Of a stretch of DNA of 64,000 bases, positions 48,365 to 57,806 are shown piece by piece (the first letter of the stretch is position 1; every line of letters begins with the position of its first letter). The stretch is from Burkholderiales bacterium (GTDB lineage: Bacteria; Pseudomonadota; Gammaproteobacteria; Burkholderiales; SG8-39). Under the pieces are notes generated by a model that did no database searches, had not been told where the DNA came from, and saw nothing but the letters and a program-made list of their open reading frames with translations. The position numbers and the translations under genes were made by a program. The stretch lies in assembly GCA_049582365.1 (NCBI GenBank), contig JBAUTW010000122.1:26183-90182 (forward strand). Reading direction: 5' to 3'.

Positions 48365-49615
48365 TTACTGGAAGTTGAAACCGACCTCGGGGTGGCGCCC
48401 GGAAACGAGGTCCGCAAGCGCACGCCCTGAGCCGCAGGCGAGCGTCCAGCCGAGGGTCCCGTGGCCGGTATTGAGATATAGATTGCGCAACCGCGTACCG
48501 CCGATCAACGGTACGTTGTTCGGAGTGGCGGGCCGCAGACCCGCCCAGGGCGTGATTTCGCCGAACGGCGCGAGCCGCGGAAACAGCTGCCGCACGCGCT
48601 CGAGAATTGCCTCGCAGCGAACCGGATTGACTTCCGTGTCGTACCCGCCCAGCTCGGCGGTGCCTGCACTGCGTAGGCGGTCGCCCAGACGCGAGATGAC
48701 GATCTTGCATGCCTCGTCGGTCAGGCTGACGTTCGGCGCGACGGCCGCCTGCTCCGGTGTCAGAGGGATCGTGATCGAGTACCCCTTAAGCGGGTAGACC
48801 AGCATGCGCACCCCGAGCCGCGCGCATAGCAGGGGGCTGTAGCTGCCGAGTGCCACGACGTAAGCGTCACCCTCGATCCGCTCGACCCCGACACTGCGCG
48901 CGGTTACGCCGATAACCCGGTCTGCGGCAGTCTCGATCGCCTGCACGGTCGTTCCGTAACGGAAGCTCACCCCGCGCGCCTGCGCCAGGCGGGCCAGTCC
49001 CTGCGTGAATTCGAAGGCGTCGCCCGACTCGTCCTGCGGCGTGTGCACACCGCCCACGATGTCGACGGTGCTGCTCGCCAGCGCGGGCTCGAGCGCGATG
49101 CACTCGGCGCGCGACTTCACCTCCCGCTCAACGCCGAGCCGTCGCATCGACTCCGCGTGCCGCGCGAGCGCCGCGAATTCCTGCTCGTCGGTGCAGAAGT
49201 GCAGGATGCCGCGCCGCGAGCTCTGGTATTCGATGCCGGTGCGCTCCCGCAGCGTGGCCAGGCAGTCACGGCTGTAGAGCGCAAGCCCAGCCAACTCGCG
49301 CGTGTTGCGCGCGAACCTTCCGGGAAGGCATTCGAAGAGAAAGCGCAGGCCCCATTCCCATTGCGCGAGGCTGGCACGGGGCCGGAACAGCATCGGCGCA
49401 TCCTCGCGCCCGAGCCACTTTATCATCTTGGGCAGGACGTCCGGACGCGCCCATGGTTCGGCGTGTCCGGCTGAAATCTGACCGCCATTGGCAAACGACG
49501 TCTCTCTCCCCGCGTCGGACTGACGTTCGACGACGGTGACGTCGTGGCCCGCCTCGGCGAGATACCACGCCGAGGCGACGCCCACTACGCCCGCGCCAAG
49601 CACGACGACTTTCAA
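48365..49615 (-). CDS. dadA: FAD-dependent D-amino-acid dehydrogenase-like oxidoreductase
   Basis: N-terminal Rossmann motif KVVVLGAGVVGVASAWYLAEAGHDVTVVERQ and DadA-like sequence throughout. I prefer TTG 49615 (MKVVVLGAG), with GGGGAGAA 6 nt upstream, over GTG 49642. Confidence 0.78.
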   Translation of the reverse strand: MKVVVLGAGVVGVASAWYLAEAGHDVTVVERQSDAGRETSFANGGQISAGHAEPWARPDVLPKMIKWLGREDAPMLFRPRASLAQWEWGLRFLFECLPGRFARNTRELAGLALYSRDCLATLRERTGIEYQSSRRGILHFCTDEQEFAALARHAESMRRLGVEREVKSRAECIALEPALASSTVDIVGGVHTPQDESGDAFEFTQGLARLAQARGVSFRYGTTVQAIETAADRVIGVTARSVGVERIEGDAYVVALGSYSPLLCARLGVRMLVYPLKGYSITIPLTPEQAAVAPNVSLTDEACKIVISRLGDRLRSAGTAELGGYDTEVNPVRCEAILERVRQLFPRLAPFGEITPWAGLRPATPNNVPLIGGTRLRNLYLNTGHGTLGWTLACGSGRALADLVSGRHPEVGFNFQ

Positions 49616-49684
49616 TCGAAGTTCTCCCCGCTGGTCACCCACGCTATGATAGCCACTGCTCCCACCTTAGCCAGAAACGCCGTA

Positions 49685-50234: not shown

Positions 50235-51002
50235 TCATTTCGGCGCCATGCGGATCGCGCCGTCGAGGCGGATCACTTCTCCATTCAGCATTTCGTTCTC
50301 GACAATGCTTCTCACCAGCTGCGCGTACTCCGCGGGTCGCCCGAGGCGGGGCGGGAACGGAACCATCTTGCCGAGCGAGTCCTGTGCCTCCTTCGGCAGC
50401 CCCATCAACATCGGCGTTTCGAATATGCCTGGCGCGATGGTACAAACGCGAATTCCGCTGCGCGCGAGGTCGCGGGCAATCGGCAGCGTCATGCCGACGA
50501 CCCCGCCCTTCGAGGCAGAGTACGCCGCCTGACCGATTTGCCCGTCGAACGCGGCGACCGATGCCGTGTTGACGATCACGCCGCGTTCGCCTGCTGCGTT
50601 GGGCCCGGCTTTGGCCATCGCATCCGCAGTCATACGGATCATGTTGAACGTTCCGATCAAGTTCACGCCGACAACGCGTGCGAAGCTCGCGAGCCGATGC
50701 GGCCCGTCTTTGCCAATCGTCTTTTCGGCGATGGCGATGCCGGCGCAGTTCACCAGGACATGTACGCCCCCGAATGCGCTCAGCGCCAGCTGCACAACTG
50801 CCGCCGCATCGGCTTCTGCGGTAACGTCGGTGCGCACGAAGCGCGCGGCGGCACCGAGCGACTTCGCAAGCTCGTTTCCTGCCTCCGCCTGCATATCGGC
50901 GAGCACCACTTTGCCTCCACCCTCGACCGCCATCCGGGCGGTCGCTGCGCCAAGGCCGGATGCGCCGCCAGTGATGAGAAACACGCTGTTCTTGATCTGC
51001 AT
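50235..51002 (-). CDS. short-chain dehydrogenase, 3-hydroxyacyl-CoA dehydrogenase type-2-like
   Basis: Start re-set to ATG 51002 (GGAG 5 nt upstream), giving 255 aa. TGGASGLG cofactor motif and catalytic YSASKGGV. It resembles the HSD17B10/FadB2-type SDR. Confidence 0.85.
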
Positions 51003-51096
51003 GGGGACTCCGTTGTGAACGGCCGGAACAGTGACCAATTTGAAGCATATAACGGAATATTCTTGAGGCCACGGCCCCAATCGTGGACAATTCCAG

Positions 51097-51118
51097 TTTT
51101 TGAACGGCTGTTCAAAAA
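51097..51118. promoter_or_regulatory. perfect 9-4-9 inverted repeat (candidate operator) in the divergent SDR/flavoprotein control region
   Basis: TTTTTGAAC-GGCT-GTTCAAAAA. It is flanked by a 9-nt direct repeat, AATCGTGGA, at 51079-51087 and 51117-51125. Confidence 0.35.
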
Positions 51119-51168
51119 TCGTGGATGCGCTTTCCCGGAACTCTGCTCAATTGCACCTAGGCTTCGGC

Positions 51169-54100
51169 ATGAACTTCGGCGATCTGTACGATCGCCAGGC
51201 GCTGCGCTCGCTGGACGGCGCCTTTCTCGACTTCCTGGGCGAAGCGGACGCCGGGCTTCGCAACCGCCTTGCGGCTGCGCGCGAAGCGCCGGACCAGCTC
51301 GCGCCCAAAGACGAGTCGGAACTATTGATCGCGCTCGCGCCGCACCTGGACGATTTCATCGCACGCCTATTCGGAATCGAGACCGAGGTCCAGGCCCTCG
51401 CCACGCGCCACCACGAGCTGGCGCCGCTGTATTCGGTCAAACGGCTTTTCGTGCAGCGCCGCGCCCTGCACAAGATCAGTGCCGAGGAGGCCCAGCGCGT
51501 GGACGGCGCGATCGCCGAGCAGCAGCTGGTCGCCAAGTTCGGCGAACCGTTCAGCGAGCTTGCCTTCGCGCGCCATGTCACCGAATGGCAGAAGGACGAA
51601 GCAGCGAACGCGGAGGCGCTCGAGCTCGCCGCGCGCTACGCGGCGTGGGCGACGGTGACGCCGGAGGGCAAAGCACGACATCGGGCCGGTGTTTTGTTCA
51701 AGGCGCCCAGGAAGCTCGACTTCATGCGCCTGGTCCCGGTCCATACCGATGCCTCGCAGGGCTACCCGCGACATACGCTTGCCTCCGAACACCTGCGGCG
51801 CCGGGAAGGCTTCGGGCTGACCGACGCGGGGACCGACCTGGTCGGCGCGCTCGACCAGGCGAACTATTGCATCTGGTGCCATGAGCAAGGCAAGGATTCG
51901 TGCTCGAAGGGGCTGAAGGAGAAAGCTCCCACGCACGGCTTCAAGAAGACAGTGTTCGGCGTCACCCTCGCCGGCTGCCCGCTGGAGGAAAAGATATCGG
52001 AGTTCCACATGGTCAAGACGCGCGGCCAGCTGCTGGCGGCGCTCGCCATCATCACGGTAGACAACGCGATGGTCGCCGGCACGGGGCACCGCATCTGCAA
52101 CGACTGCATGAAATCCTGCATCTACCAGAAGCAGGAGCCGGTCGACATTCCGCAGGCTGAAACACGCACCCTCAAGGACGTGCTCGGGTTGCCGTGGGGT
52201 TTCGAGATCTACTCGCTCTTGACGCGCTGGAATCCGCTCGATTTGCGGCGACCGTATCCCCGCCCAGCGAGCGGCAAGCGCGTGCTGGTGGTCGGTCTCG
52301 GGCCGGCCGGATTCACGGTGGCGCACCATCTGATGAACGACGGCCACACTGTAGTCGGCATCGATGGCCTGAAGATCGAACCGCTCGACCCGGGTTTGAG
52401 CGGCGTCGACCCATTGGGCGTACGCAAGCCCTTCCGGCCCATCCGCAGCCTCGATGAGCTGTACGAGCCGCTCGACGAACGCCTCATGGCCGGCTTCGGC
52501 GGCGTCGCCGAGTACGGAATCACGGTGCGCTGGGACAAGAACTTCCTGAAAATCATACGTCTGTTGCTCGAGCGCCGAACCGAGTTCGCCATGTTCGGTG
52601 GAGTGCGGTTCGGCGGCACACTGGGCGCCGAGGATGCCTTCGCGCTCGGCTTCGATCACATAGTGCTCGCCGCGGGCGCCGGCCGCCCGACGCTGCTGGA
52701 CGTGCCCAATGGCCTCGCCCGAGGCGTACGCGCGGCGTCGGACTTCTTGATGGCGCTGCAGCTGACCGGTGCCGCGCGGCGCGACTCGATCGCCAACTTG
52801 CAGATCCGCCTGCCTGTGGTGGTCATCGGCGGCGGCTTGACTGCGATAGATACCGCGACCGAGTCGCTTGCCTACTATGTCGTGCAGGTGGAGAAATTCC
52901 TGTCGCGCTACGAGGCTCTCAGCTCGGAACGTGGCGAAGCTACGGTGCGCGAGGCATGGAACGCAGAAGAGACGGACATCGCCGACGAGTTCGTGGCGCA
53001 CGCGCGCTCGATTCGCGCGGAGCGCGCCGCGGCGCGGGCCGAGGGGCGCGAGCCGAAGCTGCTCGAGCTGCTGCAGTCCTGGGGCGGCGTCACGATCGCC
53101 TACCGCAGGCGGCTGGTCGACGCGCCTTCCTACACGCTGAACCACGAGGAGGTCGAAAAGGCTCTGGAGGAAGGGATCAGCTTCGCCGAAGGCCTGTCGC
53201 CGACGAGGATCGAAATCGACCAGTTCGGACATGCCAGCGCGGTGCGTTTCGCCCAGCAGGGCGGCAGCGAGGTCGAGCTTCAGGCGCGCTCGGTGCTGGT
53301 CGCGGCCGGCACGCAGCCCAACACTGTACTGGGGCGCGAAGATCCCACGCACTTCAAGCTCGACGGCAAGTACTTCGAGGCCTGCGACCCGGCGGGCAAT
53401 CCGGTCAAGCCCGAGCGAGCCATCTCCAAGCCTTTGCTGCCGAGCGTCTTGATGTGGCGCACCCGCGATGGCAGGTTCGTAAGCTATTTCGGCGACCTGC
53501 ATCCGTCCTATTTCGGCAACGTGGTGAAGGCGATGGGGGGCGCCAAGCAAGGCTACCCCACGGTCAGCGCAATGCTGGCAAAAGTCAGCCCGGCATCGGC
53601 GCTTGACGATGCTGCGTTCCTCGCGCTGCTGAATCGCGAATTGCGCCCAGTCGTTCACGAGGTCAAGCGCCTGACGCCGACCATCGTCGAAGTCGTGGTC
53701 CGCGCCCCAGCCGCCGCACGACGCTTCCGACCCGGGCAGTTTTACCGCCTGCAGAATTTCGAATCTCTCGCGCCTCGCGTCGGCGACACCACACTGGCAA
53801 TGGAGGGGCTAGCGCTGACCGGAGCCTGGGTGGACAAGGCGCGCGGCGTCCTTTCGACCATTATCCTCGAGATGGGCGGCTCGTCGGATCTGTGCGCCCA
53901 TCTGACGCCCGGCGAACCGGTCGTTCTCATGGGCCCGACCGGCACGCCGACCGAGATTCCGCCTGACGAAACGGTTGTCCTGGCGGGCGGCGGGCTGGGC
54001 AATGCAGTTCTGTTTTCGATCGGCCAGGCACTGCGCGCCGCTGGCTCCAAGGTGCTCTACTTCGCCGGCTACAAGAAGGACGCAGACCGCTACAAGGTCG

Positions 54101-54633
54101 AGGAGATCGAGAAGGCGGCTGACGTCGTCGTCTGGTGCTGCGACCGCCCCCCCGGTTTTCAGGCCCGCCGGGCGCAGGATCGAAGTTTTGTCGGCAATAT
54201 CGTCGATGCGATGCTCGCCTACGCCCGGGGCCAGCTCGGAGAGCACTCGATCTCCTTTCACGACTGCGACCGACTGCTGGCGATCGGATCGGACCGCATG
54301 ATGGCCGCTGTGGCTCGGGCCCGGCACAACGAGCTCAAGGACTATCTCAAGGCGTCCCATCTGGCCATCGGCTCGATCAATTCGCCCATGCAGTGCATGA
54401 TGAAGGAAGTGTGCGCGCAGTGCCTGCAGCCCCACGTCGACCCGGTCACCGGCGATCGAAGCTACGTCTTCTCCTGCTTCAACCAGGACCAACCGCTCGA
54501 TCTGGTGGATTTTCCGGCCCTTGACCAGCGGTTGCGCCAGAACGGAGTGCAGGAGAAACTGACGGCACAGTGGATCGACCGCTGTCTGCGCGAACTCCAA
54601 TTGCGGACTCGGAGCGCAGCCGTCTTGAGCTAA
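51169..54633 (+). CDS. large fused iron-sulfur flavoprotein: unassigned N-domain + GltD/NfnB-like + PyrK/NfnA-like modules
   Basis: About 1154 aa from ATG 51169. The start is uncertain: the ORF track uses TTG 51100, which lies inside the palindrome. Cys clusters CIWCHEQGKDSC...GCPLEEKISE...ICNDCMKSC resemble the two [4Fe-4S] sites of glutamate synthase small-subunit-type proteins. There are two dinucleotide-binding motifs (VLVVGLGPAG, VVVIGGGLTAIDTA). The C-terminal ~290 aa look like an FNR/PyrK module (RPGQFYRL...VLMGPTG...VLAGGGLG) ending in a 2Fe-2S-type motif CMMKEVCAQC...C. Confidence 0.78.
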   Translation: MNFGDLYDRQALRSLDGAFLDFLGEADAGLRNRLAAAREAPDQLAPKDESELLIALAPHLDDFIARLFGIETEVQALATRHHELAPLYSVKRLFVQRRALHKISAEEAQRVDGAIAEQQLVAKFGEPFSELAFARHVTEWQKDEAANAEALELAARYAAWATVTPEGKARHRAGVLFKAPRKLDFMRLVPVHTDASQGYPRHTLASEHLRRREGFGLTDAGTDLVGALDQANYCIWCHEQGKDSCSKGLKEKAPTHGFKKTVFGVTLAGCPLEEKISEFHMVKTRGQLLAALAIITVDNAMVAGTGHRICNDCMKSCIYQKQEPVDIPQAETRTLKDVLGLPWGFEIYSLLTRWNPLDLRRPYPRPASGKRVLVVGLGPAGFTVAHHLMNDGHTVVGIDGLKIEPLDPGLSGVDPLGVRKPFRPIRSLDELYEPLDERLMAGFGGVAEYGITVRWDKNFLKIIRLLLERRTEFAMFGGVRFGGTLGAEDAFALGFDHIVLAAGAGRPTLLDVPNGLARGVRAASDFLMALQLTGAARRDSIANLQIRLPVVVIGGGLTAIDTATESLAYYVVQVEKFLSRYEALSSERGEATVREAWNAEETDIADEFVAHARSIRAERAAARAEGREPKLLELLQSWGGVTIAYRRRLVDAPSYTLNHEEVEKALEEGISFAEGLSPTRIEIDQFGHASAVRFAQQGGSEVELQARSVLVAAGTQPNTVLGREDPTHFKLDGKYFEACDPAGNPVKPERAISKPLLPSVLMWRTRDGRFVSYFGDLHPSYFGNVVKAMGGAKQGYPTVSAMLAKVSPASALDDAAFLALLNRELRPVVHEVKRLTPTIVEVVVRAPAAARRFRPGQFYRLQNFESLAPRVGDTTLAMEGLALTGAWVDKARGVLSTIILEMGGSSDLCAHLTPGEPVVLMGPTGTPTEIPPDETVVLAGGGLGNAVLFSIGQALRAAGSKVLYFAGYKKDADRYKVEEIEKAADVVVWCCDRPPGFQARRAQDRSFVGNIVDAMLAYARGQLGEHSISFHDCDRLLAIGSDRMMAAVARARHNELKDYLKASHLAIGSINSPMQCMMKEVCAQCLQPHVDPVTGDRSYVFSCFNQDQPLDLVDFPALDQRLRQNGVQEKLTAQWIDRCLRELQLRTRSAAVLS

Positions 54634-55892: not shown

Positions 55893-55920
55893 CGCCGGGC
55901 ATGTCCCGGCGATTTTGTCT
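55893..55920 (+). terminator. hairpin plus T-rich tract between binding-protein and permease genes (attenuator)
   Basis: CGCCGGG-CATGT-CCCGGCG followed by ATTTTGTCT. This is the typical arrangement that gives excess binding-protein transcript in ABC operons. Confidence 0.45.
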
Positions 55921-55922
55921 TG

Positions 55923-57806
55923 ATGACCACGTCGGCGATCCTGATCCAGTTCCTGAACGGCCTGGCCGGCGCCAGTTCGCTCTTTCTGGTGGCTGCGGGC
56001 CTGTCGATCATCTTCGGCGTCACGCGGATCGTCAATTTTGCCCACGGCTCATTCTTCATGCTGGGCCTGTACGTGGCCTACAGCCTGATCGACAAGTTCG
56101 GCCACGGGACGGTTGGATTCTGGGGTGGCGTGGCACTCGCCGCAGTTGCCGTCGCGCTGCTCGGCGCGCTAGTCGAAATGCTGCTGCTGCGTCGTATCTA
56201 CGCGGCGCCCGAGCTGCTGCAACTGCTTGCCACGTTCGCGCTGGTGCTGGTGATTCAGGACTTCACGCTCTGGGCGTGGGGTCCGGAGGACTTGCTCGGC
56301 CCGCGCGCGCCGGGCCTGAGCGGCGCGGTGAACATCGCCGGGCATCAATTTCCGCAGTACGACCTGTTCCTGATCGTTCTCGGTCCGACAGTGCTGCTGA
56401 TGCTCAACTTCCTGTTGAATCGCACTCGATGGGGCACGCTCGTGCGCGCAGCAACCGAGGACCGCGAGATGGCAGGCGCGCTCGGAGTCAATCAGAAGTG
56501 GATGTTCACGACTGTGTTTGCTCTCGGCGCCTTGCTCGCCGGCGCGGGAGGAGCATTGCAGATTCCGCGCGAGCCTGCGAGTCTCTACCTCGATCTGTCG
56601 GTCATCGCCGACGCCTTCGTCGTGGTGGTAGTGGGCGGACTGGGCTCCATTCCCGGCGCGTTTCTCGCCGCACTGCTGATTGCCGAGATCAAGGCGTTCT
56701 GCATCGGCATCGGCGACGTCACGATTGCAGATAGCGTGATTTCGCTTTCCAAGCTAACGCTGGTGGTCGAGTTTGTGGTCATGGCGGTAGTGCTGGTGCT
56801 GCGGCCCTGGGGCCTGCTCGGCCGGCGCCCGACCCCGCCGCGCAGCGCGAGTGCCGTTGAACGCCCGCCTGTGCTGCCGTCGCGCCGCGCCCTTTACGCG
56901 CTCGCGGCCTGTGGCGCCGCGCTCGCCCTGCTTCCGGCGCTGACGACCGGGTATCTGCTCATTCTCCTGACCGACATATTCGTATTCGCTTTGTTCGCGG
57001 TCAGCCTGCACTTCATCATGGGACCCGGCGGAATGCCGTCCTTCGGTCATGCGGCCTACTTCGGCCTTGGGGCCTACGGGGCAGGGCTGCTCCTGCAACG
57101 CGCCGGATTGCCGATGGAACTCGCCCTGCTGCTGGGGCCCCTCGTGGCTGGCGTGGGGGCACTGGCGTTCGGCTGGTTCTGTGTCCGGCTGTCCGGCGTG
57201 TATCTCGCGATGTTGACGCTCGCGTTCGCCCAGATCAGCTGGTCAATCGTCTTCCAGTGGGATTCGATGACCGGCGGCTCCAACGGCCTGATCGGCGTGT
57301 GGCCTGCAGGCTGGCTCGCGTCCAGAACGTCATACTATTTTCTCGCGCTCGTCACCGGCGCCGGCGGCATCGTCATGCTATGGCGCATGCTTCATTCACC
57401 ATTCGGATACGCCTTGCGCGCCGGACGCGACTCGCCCCTGCGCGCCGACGCCATTGGCATCGACGTACGGAGCCAACAGTGGGCCGCTTTTGTCATTGCG
57501 GGTCTGTTTGCCGGCGTTGGCGGCGCCGTCTATGTCTTCTCCAAGGGCTCAATATCGCCCGACTCGCTCGCCGTGCCGCGTTCGATCAACGGCCTGGTCA
57601 TGGTCTTGCTCGGCGGCGTCCAGACGCTCACCGGACCGGTATGGGGCGCGGCGCTGTTCACCTGGCTGCAGGACGCGGCAGCGCGCAATGTCGAGTATTG
57701 GCGCGCCGTCATCGGCCTGATCATCATTGCGCTTGTACTCGCCTTTCCGCAGGGCCTTGCCGGCTTCCTGCGAGACCGCTTCGCAGGTGAACGGGACGCG
57801 TCGTGA
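55923..57806 (+). CDS. fused branched-chain amino acid ABC permease (LivH-like + LivM-like halves)
   Basis: About 627 aa polytopic protein. The N-terminal half (ILIQFLNGLAGASSLFLVAAGLSIIFGVTRIVNFAHG) is LivH-like. The C-terminal half (LLILLTDIFVFALFAVSLHFIMGPGGMPSFGHAAYFGLGAY) is LivM-like. Confidence 0.85.
   Translation: MTTSAILIQFLNGLAGASSLFLVAAGLSIIFGVTRIVNFAHGSFFMLGLYVAYSLIDKFGHGTVGFWGGVALAAVAVALLGALVEMLLLRRIYAAPELLQLLATFALVLVIQDFTLWAWGPEDLLGPRAPGLSGAVNIAGHQFPQYDLFLIVLGPTVLLMLNFLLNRTRWGTLVRAATEDREMAGALGVNQKWMFTTVFALGALLAGAGGALQIPREPASLYLDLSVIADAFVVVVVGGLGSIPGAFLAALLIAEIKAFCIGIGDVTIADSVISLSKLTLVVEFVVMAVVLVLRPWGLLGRRPTPPRSASAVERPPVLPSRRALYALAACGAALALLPALTTGYLLILLTDIFVFALFAVSLHFIMGPGGMPSFGHAAYFGLGAYGAGLLLQRAGLPMELALLLGPLVAGVGALAFGWFCVRLSGVYLAMLTLAFAQISWSIVFQWDSMTGGSNGLIGVWPAGWLASRTSYYFLALVTGAGGIVMLWRMLHSPFGYALRAGRDSPLRADAIGIDVRSQQWAAFVIAGLFAGVGGAVYVFSKGSISPDSLAVPRSINGLVMVLLGGVQTLTGPVWGAALFTWLQDAAARNVEYWRAVIGLIIIALVLAFPQGLAGFLRDRFAGERDAS

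Follow-up and report, generated by a model that had tools for sequence, protein, structure and literature searches.

What reaction might be carried out by a single protein that unites, behind an additional domain, modules that are normally separate subunits of electron-transfer complexes? This question is raised by a gene in a 64,000-nucleotide stretch of DNA from a Burkholderiales metagenome-assembled genome (MAG; assembly GCA_049582365.1, contig JBAUTW010000122.1, positions 26,183 to 90,182), hereafter the window. An earlier reading of the letters alone, here called the original prediction, had proposed that a protein of about 1150 residues fuses an NfnB/GltD-like and an NfnA/PyrK-like module to an N-terminal domain that it could not place. 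Translation, motifs and full-length relatives bear out this three-module structure, and the protein belongs to the RP005/PRK06567 family; it is a further copy of a common, catalogued family and not a new kind of enzyme. As to its role, we propose, with a probability that we put at roughly one half, that RP005 flavoproteins use NADPH to supply ferredoxin with low-potential electrons, possibly by bifurcation.

Both halves of an Nfn-type enzyme in one chain

The gene lies on the + strand, in a frame open from a TTG at 51100 to the stop at 54633 (open reading frame list and translation). Read from the ATG at 51169, whose numbering is used below, it encodes a 1154-residue protein, and G+C is even across the region. 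Because full-length relatives with 70-95% identity are abundant, we regard the gene as real and intact. The gene and its parts are as follows.

51121..54633, + strand: RP005-family fused iron-sulfur (Fe-S) flavoprotein gene, from its probable start (open reading frame list, translation, congener alignment)
51169..51783, + strand: RP005_N-type N-terminal domain, residues 1-205 in ATG numbering (AlphaFold2 (AF2) model, PF27156 in homologues)
51790..52203, + strand: NfnB/GltD-type domain with motifs for two [4Fe-4S] clusters, residues 208-345 (invariant columns of alignment A1, alignments)
52252..53568, + strand: FAD and NADPH dinucleotide domains, about residues 362-800 (Pyr_redox_2, HMMER alignments, Foldseek)
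52870..53082, + strand: family-specific two-helix insertion of 71 residues in the NADPH domain, residues 568-638 (alignment gap, model)
53644..54498, + strand: NfnA/PyrK-like FNR module, about residues 826-1110 (phmmer, Foldseek, motifs)

The covalent fusion of the two redox modules is supported by motifs, profiles and structural matches alike. In the NfnB/GltD-like module, the Cys clusters that had been read from the sequence consist of seven Cys invariant in A1 (234, 237, 245, 270, 310, 313 and 317), arranged as C234-x2-C237-x7-C245 ... G-C270-P and C310-x2-C313-x3-C317, with a 24-residue insertion between C245 and C270, before the G-C-P element. This Fe-S domain can be aligned to the GltD chain 7mfm_I and the NfnL chain 5jca_L. 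The suggested profile search gave a partial match to Fer4_20 at residues 268-331 (E 9.7e-05), whose 22.6 bits lie below the Pfam gathering cut-off of 25.8 bits, and a match to Pyr_redox_2 over residues 371-722 (E 1.3e-13). The two Rossmann motifs are also present, as GLGPAG (376-381) and GGGLTA (554-559), and the stretch Y645-R-R-R aligns with the YRR of Pyrococcus furiosus NfnL in HMMER alignments to 5vj7_A and 5jca_L. At the level of the whole module, the sequence matches are the NfnB/GltD chains 5vj7_A, 5jca_L and 7mfm_I. Between ...DTATESL and GGVTIAYRR, where NfnL has only about 3 residues, the flavoprotein has 71, and the model of the whole protein predicts helices at 557-588 and 599-625 in this region.

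Similarly, the assignment of the C-terminal module to the PyrK/NfnA type, with a 2Fe-2S-like Cys motif, has held. Its phmmer matches are the NfnA/PyrK chains 4ylf_A (8e-10), 5jca_S and 1ep3_B, it carries the motifs GPTG (922-925) and GGGLGNA (940-946), and the [2Fe-2S]-type motif C1076-x5-C1082-x2-C1085-x17-C1103 (nucleotides 54394-54477) keeps its four Cys in all 13 full-length rows of A1.

The AF2 model of the whole protein is compact and confident (pTM 0.84), and its best PDB matches are both subunits of P. furiosus NfnI and Xfn: Foldseek returned the large subunit NfnL (5jfc_L/5jca_L) at TMt 0.72-0.73, with E 1.3e-16 for 5jfc_L, Xfn (5vj7_A) at TMt 0.74, and the NfnI small subunit (5jca_S) at TMt 0.89 with an rmsd of 2.7 Å. 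Judged from its sequence, the flavoprotein is a soluble, single-chain protein holding both halves of an Nfn-type enzyme. It shares with NfnI the folds of both subunits, the di-[4Fe-4S] Cys pattern, the FAD and NADPH motifs and the C-terminal [2Fe-2S] motif. It differs from NfnI in being a single chain in B-then-A order, and in having an extra N-domain of 205 residues and the insertions of 24 and 71 residues. In NfnA, the ligands of the [2Fe-2S] cluster are an Asp and three Cys, whereas the flavoprotein motif has four Cys, as in PyrK. The flavin motif is EGLALT instead of the R-x-P-L-T of NfnI, the identity is only 18-21%, the hosts are aerobic, and the likeness is one of sequence and model.

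More broadly, the folds and cofactor motifs of the modules are homologous to those of GltD, PreT and the N-terminal half of dihydropyrimidine dehydrogenase on one side, and of PyrK and AsrB on the other. Unlike GltD and PyrK, the flavoprotein has no gltB, pyrD or FMN/dihydroorotate dehydrogenase-like domain fused or adjacent to it, and a Pfam profile search of the protein found no amidotransferase, synthase or monooxygenase domain.

The RP005_N domain

That an extra domain precedes the redox modules was correct, although its proposed length of about 270 residues was not. At about residue 208 the sequence takes up the pattern with which NfnB/GltD Fe-S domains canonically begin, R-x-x-G-F-x-L-T-D ... 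A-x-Y-C-x-x-C; in the family alignment, R212 and F215 do not vary, and conservation of G214, T218 and D219 is at least 90%. The unassigned part therefore measures about 205 residues. The AF2 model (mean pLDDT 87.7) shows it as nine or ten helices, with a beta-hairpin after them.

Nor did the view hold that this domain cannot be assigned to any family. Pfam PF27156 (RP005_N) is precomputed on homologues from 95% down to 36% identity, the domain aligns end to end with homologues bearing it, and the assignment is made through these precomputed matches of the homologues. With residues 1-232 as the query, 1257 clusters were found at E<=0.001 among 1.8 billion representatives. The long matches among the cluster representatives have 1044-1195 residues, with the match near the N-terminus, and most short matches look like fragments; one protein of 505 residues is matched at residues 269-495. 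In the genomes of GTDB relatives, the N-domain always opens a long frame, of 1166-1329 residues where the contig is uncut. The alignment of the N-domain contains no conserved 7-10-mer, and the search for loci was therefore made with the full-length alignment.

The structure prediction and fold search that had been suggested for this domain gave no PDB relative, since in Foldseek no chain reached E<=0.001, the best having E 4.3. Among 48,161 chains compared by VIA-align, the best score was Z 5.7 over 66 residues, with sigma-factor helices; this is the background for helical bundles, and we dropped these helices as a candidate fold relative.

One homologue of 1079 residues, P0172, has an insertion of about 150 residues inside RP005_N (…GGFRFRRQSPIGSYIADFVC…VIELDGEQHG…LRFWNNEV…), at about columns 150-330 of A1, and also lacks the C-terminal module. 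The insertion, which we take to resemble the DUF559/Vsr-type endonuclease fold, might be mobile in origin or an artefact of assembly.

A divergent branch of a catalogued family

The whole architecture, N-domain included, corresponds to the NCBIfam model NF005128 (PRK06567), which matches residues 8-964 over profile positions 13-923 of 1031 (E 9.3e-233, 775.3 bits). Since this score stays under the equivalog cut-off of 1072 bits, the profile match fits a divergent branch of the NF005128 family; indeed, among 201 genomes of the GTDB class, none of the 43 matches to the model passes the cut-off. The other curated models (GltD, the NfnAB fusions PRK12778/12779/12775, PyrK, AegA and YgfK) are far below theirs. 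For GltD, TIGR01317 gave 50.5 bits against a cut-off of 447.7 and TIGR01318 gave 44.2 against 483, with no gltB nearby. For PyrK, NF000799 gave 31.4 bits against 314, with no DHO_dh gene adjacent.

The flavoprotein has the domain order of RP005, that is, an N-domain, an NfnB/GltD-like and a PyrK/NfnA-like module in one chain of about 1000-1300 residues, and together with the profile match this makes its membership of the RP005/PRK06567 family firm. At least 8000 full-length homologues exist (all 8000 scored candidates passed), and the best 120 of these all have 957-1215 residues and carry PF27156 and PF07992. Contrary to what the original prediction had implied, the fusion is therefore not unusual: the same chimera was described in 2013 from nearly every Rickettsiales genome (PMC3641634), and fused Nfn homologues in B-then-A order have been reviewed as the uncharacterised 'pattern C' (PMC6405883). 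Pattern C resembles the flavoprotein in being a single polypeptide with the NfnB-type before the NfnA-type part, and is likewise uncharacterised, but it exceeds the Clostridium-type fusions by no more than about 200 residues (PMC6405883). From its B-then-A order and the model length of 944 positions, it is probably NF009415/PRK12779. The flavoprotein gives this model 86 bits against a cut-off of 1519, over residues 831-1090 only, which places it in a different family.

One expectation of the original prediction did survive the profile searches, namely that the reaction is not that of a characterised enzyme, as neither the fusion nor the N-domain corresponds to one. Our literature search found no study characterising the function of an RP005-family member, and the flavoprotein is a sound target for biochemistry.

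The family is present in Proteobacteria and Acidobacteriota. The closest 80 loci (63-77% identity) come from Burkholderiales and other betaproteobacterial MAGs, Nitrosomonadaceae and Gallionellaceae, from Alphaproteobacteria (Stellaceae, Reyranella, Rhodospirillaceae and a Rickettsiales MAG), from Nevskia and from Acidobacteriota. When the GTDB class was sampled evenly, a strong match turned up in 43 of the 201 genomes, a count that takes in two unpublished genomes (G079 and G181), which served for this alone, and none of 14 well-known control genomes has a member. Within the order of the window, 24 genomes of its own family and 16 other families were covered, and the N-domain was found in 20 and 7 of these, respectively.

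Recurrent links with ferredoxin, sulfite reductase and transhydrogenase genes

To describe gene context, two sets of loci were used, the 80 closest (set A) and 38 published loci with one per GTDB family (set B); open reading frames were called and the neighbours clustered. Links with fdxA, sir and pntAB recur in separate lineages, each in a minority of loci.

The gene of a 7Fe ferredoxin, fdxA, lies in the flanks of 14 of the 118 loci. Seven of these are in set A (7/80), with fdxA directly upstream and co-directional in 5, and seven in set B (7/38), where in 6 cases fdxA is divergent from a glutaredoxin-X pair. The neighbouring product is the proteobacterial 7Fe FdxA (NF045490, 165 bits). In loci from six gammaproteobacterial families (L111, L112, L114, L115, L127 and L148), a glutaredoxin gene of about 100 codons precedes the flavoprotein gene, with fdxA beside it, and some of these loci have NadA, a rhodanese and a sucrase/ferredoxin-like protein downstream. 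These loci point to an Fe-S/thiol redox theme.

The link with sulfate assimilation (sir-cysHDN) was found in 9 loci. In six Nitrosomonadaceae, the flavoprotein gene is the last of a sir-(DUF934)-cysH-cysD-cysN operon; in two alphaproteobacterial MAGs, it follows sir-cysH-cysD-cysN (L069) or sir directly (L045); and in a Rickettsiales MAG, it follows sir-cysH-cysD-cysNC, its start overlapping the cysNC stop. In addition, pntAB lies 3' of the gene in 5 loci, of which four are betaproteobacterial (three from Nitrosomonadaceae and one from Nitrotoga) and one is from a further genome. On a quick IQ-TREE protein tree of 110 family members, from which only truncated open reading frames were left out and which was midpoint-rooted for drawing only, no fewer than 3 changes are needed to account for the sir link, and the fdxA link is scattered over several separate positions.

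A proposed route for the electrons

Taking as observed ground the gene, its modules and cofactor motifs, its family membership and the context counts, we propose that NADPH would reduce the FAD of the NfnB-like module, and that the electrons would travel via both [4Fe-4S] clusters to an acceptor protein of low potential. This acceptor would most likely be the 7Fe ferredoxin FdxA or, depending on the lineage, an enzyme that takes its electrons from ferredoxin, for instance NirA-type sulfite reductase. The NfnA-like module, with its [2Fe-2S] motif and NAD(H) site, could provide a second, high-potential branch. If it worked as Nfn does in the bifurcating direction, the reaction would be 2 NADPH + NAD+ + 2 Fd(ox) -> 2 NADP+ + NADH + 2 Fd(red), where Fd is ferredoxin. 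The N-domain, which precedes the cluster domain in the sequence, might serve as a docking or specificity element for the acceptor. The adjacency of pntAB fits a reduced NADPH pool driving ferredoxin reduction, and the sir operons fit ferredoxin-dependent sulfite reduction; a precedent comes from Corynebacterium, where Fpr2 is encoded with cysI. A prediction of the complex between residues 1-830 and the genome's own FdxA scored 0.20 against a mark of 0.32, and counts neither way.

The genome of the window bears on what the acceptor could be there. The assembly (566 contigs, 2.84 Mb) is estimated to be complete. A tblastn search of it found no Sir, DUF934, CysH, CysD or CysN; no PAPS_reduct family gene was found, and for CysJ there is a flavodoxin-like fragment only. 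Its only NIR_SIR genes are dsrAB, on contig C214 (L102:7-3348), with 503.8 bits for dsrA and 512 bits for dsrB, both above the cut-offs. The assembly also holds two FdxA genes and pntAB. Because no assimilatory sulfate-reduction genes were found, the role of a dedicated donor to an assimilatory sulfite reductase does not apply here, and in this dsrAB-carrying Burkholderiales MAG the flavoprotein would serve as a general supply of low-potential electrons, not in sulfite reduction.

We also considered two other relationships and rejected both. The idea of a dedicated CysJ substitute for sulfite reductase was set aside for this assembly, where the assimilatory genes were not found, and it fails as a family-wide rule, as the overlap with DUF934 is about that of chance. 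Complementarity of the flavoprotein with an Fpr-type reductase was discarded too, since an Fpr-like gene co-occurs in the genome. Downstream of dsrAB lies a dsrH/tusB-family gene (dsrEFH region), an arrangement typical of sulfur oxidisers.

Several observations weigh against the ferredoxin-donor proposal. What we infer here is the identity of the acceptor, which way the electrons flow, that they bifurcate and what the N-domain does. In the NfnA-like module, the flavin motif R-x-(Y/P)-(S/T), RxYS/T in its usual form, is replaced by E-G-L-A-L-T, with a family consensus of MEGxALTGAW, where 4ylf_A has ERIPLT and 1ep3_B has RRPISI. Moreover, the GGGxGxA NAD motif is degenerate in the distant members P0168, P0179, P0218 and P0246. 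With one motif altered and the other degenerate, a second flavin, NADH binding and bifurcation are uncertain. No neighbour is conserved family-wide, the best cluster reaching 8 of 80 loci in set A and 6 of 38 in set B, and the well-supported clade of the window (nine rows) has no fdxA, sir or pnt link. Across the 201 genomes, the family and DUF934-type sulfite reductase overlap in 10, against about 7 expected by chance. The genome also has an Fpr-type ferredoxin-NADP reductase, so the flavoprotein is not its only candidate ferredoxin reductase. Finally, the hosts of RP005 proteins are aerobes, unlike the anaerobes from which the characterised Nfn enzymes come (PMC6405883).

The main rival is a plain, non-bifurcating NADPH:acceptor oxidoreductase, like DsrL or GltD, whose NfnB-like core would hand NADPH electrons straight to a specific partner enzyme bound through RP005_N and whose C-terminal module would be just a [2Fe-2S] relay or a vestige. 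The distribution of conservation speaks for it, being strong over the first 800 residues and leaving the C-terminal module almost without invariant columns, as do the altered flavin motif and the degenerate NAD motif just described. So does the position of the gene in two loci: in L084 its translation is coupled to that of cysNC, and in L045 it comes immediately after sir. DsrL is NfnB-like, with a C-terminal ferredoxin domain in place of the FNR module and no RP005_N. It is reported to be an iron-sulfur flavoprotein linking NAD(P)H to the sulfite reductase DsrAB (PMC7596348), and is a functional precedent both for such a reductase and for the sir-cysHDN linkage. A Fer4-type C-terminal domain was not found in the RP005 flavoprotein, and its gene lies outside the dsr cluster, dsrAB being on another contig of only 4.4 kb. 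Against this rival, every full-length member keeps the four [2Fe-2S] Cys, and the fold is NfnS-like (TMt 0.89), whereas a vestige would decay. Furthermore, no single partner gene is conserved, and the sir/cys genes were not found in this genome. A plain DsrL-like reductase is, in our judgement, unlikely.

If RP005 proteins are NADPH-driven, possibly bifurcating ferredoxin reductases, they would be a source of low-potential electrons for aerobes without Rnf, Fix or CysJ, in a family that is very large, highly conserved across classes and phyla and kept in most Rickettsiales (PMC3641634). It is tempting to go further and to speculate that RP005 proteins are the Nfn of aerobes, single-chain bifurcating enzymes passing electrons from NADPH to 7Fe ferredoxin and NADH, with PntAB refilling the NADPH pool and RP005_N as a new ferredoxin-docking fold. 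This bolder version is doubtful. If it were true, ferredoxin-dependent sulfite reductase and other Fe-S enzymes of many aerobic Proteobacteria, Acidobacteriota and Rickettsiales would have a named source for their reduced ferredoxin, which is at present missing; PntAB is adjacent in Nitrosomonadaceae.

Neighbours in the window and a shared palindrome

The original prediction had pointed out an adjacent dehydrogenase and an amino-acid-type importer. The nearest features upstream of the flavoprotein gene are the following.

50235..51080, - strand: short-chain dehydrogenase/reductase (SDR), FabG/HSD-like, divergent from the flavoprotein gene (adh_short 4.9e-46)
51097..51118, no strand: perfect 9+9 palindrome TTTTTGAAC-GGCT-GTTCAAAAA (sequence)

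All NCBIfam matches of the SDR are below the cut-offs. The other neighbours are a gamma-carbonic-anhydrase-like hexapeptide protein, a D-amino-acid dehydrogenase, an alpha/beta hydrolase and a Liv-type ATP-binding cassette (ABC) importer, and the set is syntenic only among the betaproteobacterial relatives of the window. The SDR adjoins the flavoprotein gene in 22 of 93 loci, and in all 22 the SDR identity is 75% or more; 12 of these loci come from the genus of the window, and 2 of those 12 are DNA of the window itself. The gene of the ABC binding protein is a neighbour in 11 of the 93. Because this synteny is limited to the clade and none is family-wide, the neighbours provide no evidence for a dedicated reaction.

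The palindrome lies in the gap between the two divergent genes, which is 40 nt (88 nt if the ATG is the start), and ends 2 nt before the GTG at 51121. It is kept at the same place in six congeners (L003-L008) and is not conserved in the more distant relatives of about 70% identity. Its core, TGAAC-N4-GTTCA, occurs once in the 2.84-Mb assembly. We predict that it is likely a local operator. As the sole such site in the assembly, it gave no clue to a regulon, and no regulator gene adjoins it. The lineage-specific neighbours and this predicted operator are all that is new from this copy of the family.

These features are the ground for a second alternative, a small-molecule reductase whose N-domain would form a substrate pocket by the distal cluster, and whose pathway the local neighbours could hint at. 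The SDR, the gamma-carbonic-anhydrase-like gene and DadA are syntenic in the clade of the window, the SDR and flavoprotein genes would share the one predicted operator, and the N-domain fold has no assigned relative. However, the synteny ends at the clade boundary, whereas the protein is still 35-55% identical across classes and phyla. The domain is also unlike a catalytic pocket, being all-helical, with R212 and F215 as its only invariant residues, both of which belong to the start of the Fe-S domain. Rickettsiales genomes are reduced. That the family is kept in them (PMC3641634) also speaks against this alternative, and we regard a small-molecule reductase as improbable.

The 'hydroxylase' in the inherited names presumably stems from an old COG name for FNR-like reductases. 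The database name taken literally, as glutamate synthase small subunit and/or 2-polyprenylphenol hydroxylase of ubiquinone synthesis, is very improbable: only the inherited names (NF005128 and JGI annotations) and an Ehrlichia homologue taken to convert glutamine to glutamate (PMC4251998) speak for it, while TIGR01317 stays at 50.5 of the required 447.7 bits, the genome encodes a canonical GltD on another contig (C446), which at 719.9 bits exceeds the cut-off, and none of the amidotransferase, synthase or monooxygenase domains was found. If the ferredoxin-donor proposal is true, the misleading label 'glutamate synthase beta / 2-polyprenylphenol hydroxylase', already in use in metabolic reconstructions (PMC4251998), would be corrected.

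Start codon and minor observations

The reading frame of the original prediction was right, but its start at ATG 51169 probably was not. The residues LHLGFG, encoded in frame just 5' of this ATG, fit the conserved N-terminus of the family, L-x-L-x-F-G-x-x-F-x-D-L-Y, and the congeners L006 and L007 have Ile at the position of the Met and retain the GTG 16 codons upstream. For these reasons we favour GTG 51121 as the probable start, which would give 1170 residues; TTG 51100 is a possible alternative. A clear Shine-Dalgarno sequence was looked for at all three candidates (51100, 51121 and 51169) and not found. Homologues with 94-95% identity are annotated from the ATG (1154 residues) by gene callers. 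With the GTG as the start, the palindrome would sit at the expected position of the ribosome-binding site.

Elsewhere in the assembly, contigs C236 and C132 (L152 and L153) carry GltD/NfnB-like frames of 641 and 622 residues, with 203 and 156 bits to TIGR01317, which could be DsrL-type proteins. In the window, dadA (48365-49642, - strand) and the gamma-carbonic-anhydrase-like gene (+ strand, listed from 49544, stretch to 50230) overlap by about 100 nt. This overlap is probably only apparent, with the true start of the latter gene further downstream, since its NCBIfam match begins at residue 55. The permease of the ABC importer (55920-57806) consists of one open reading frame of 628 residues in which BPD_transp_2 is matched twice, suggesting that LivH and LivM are fused.

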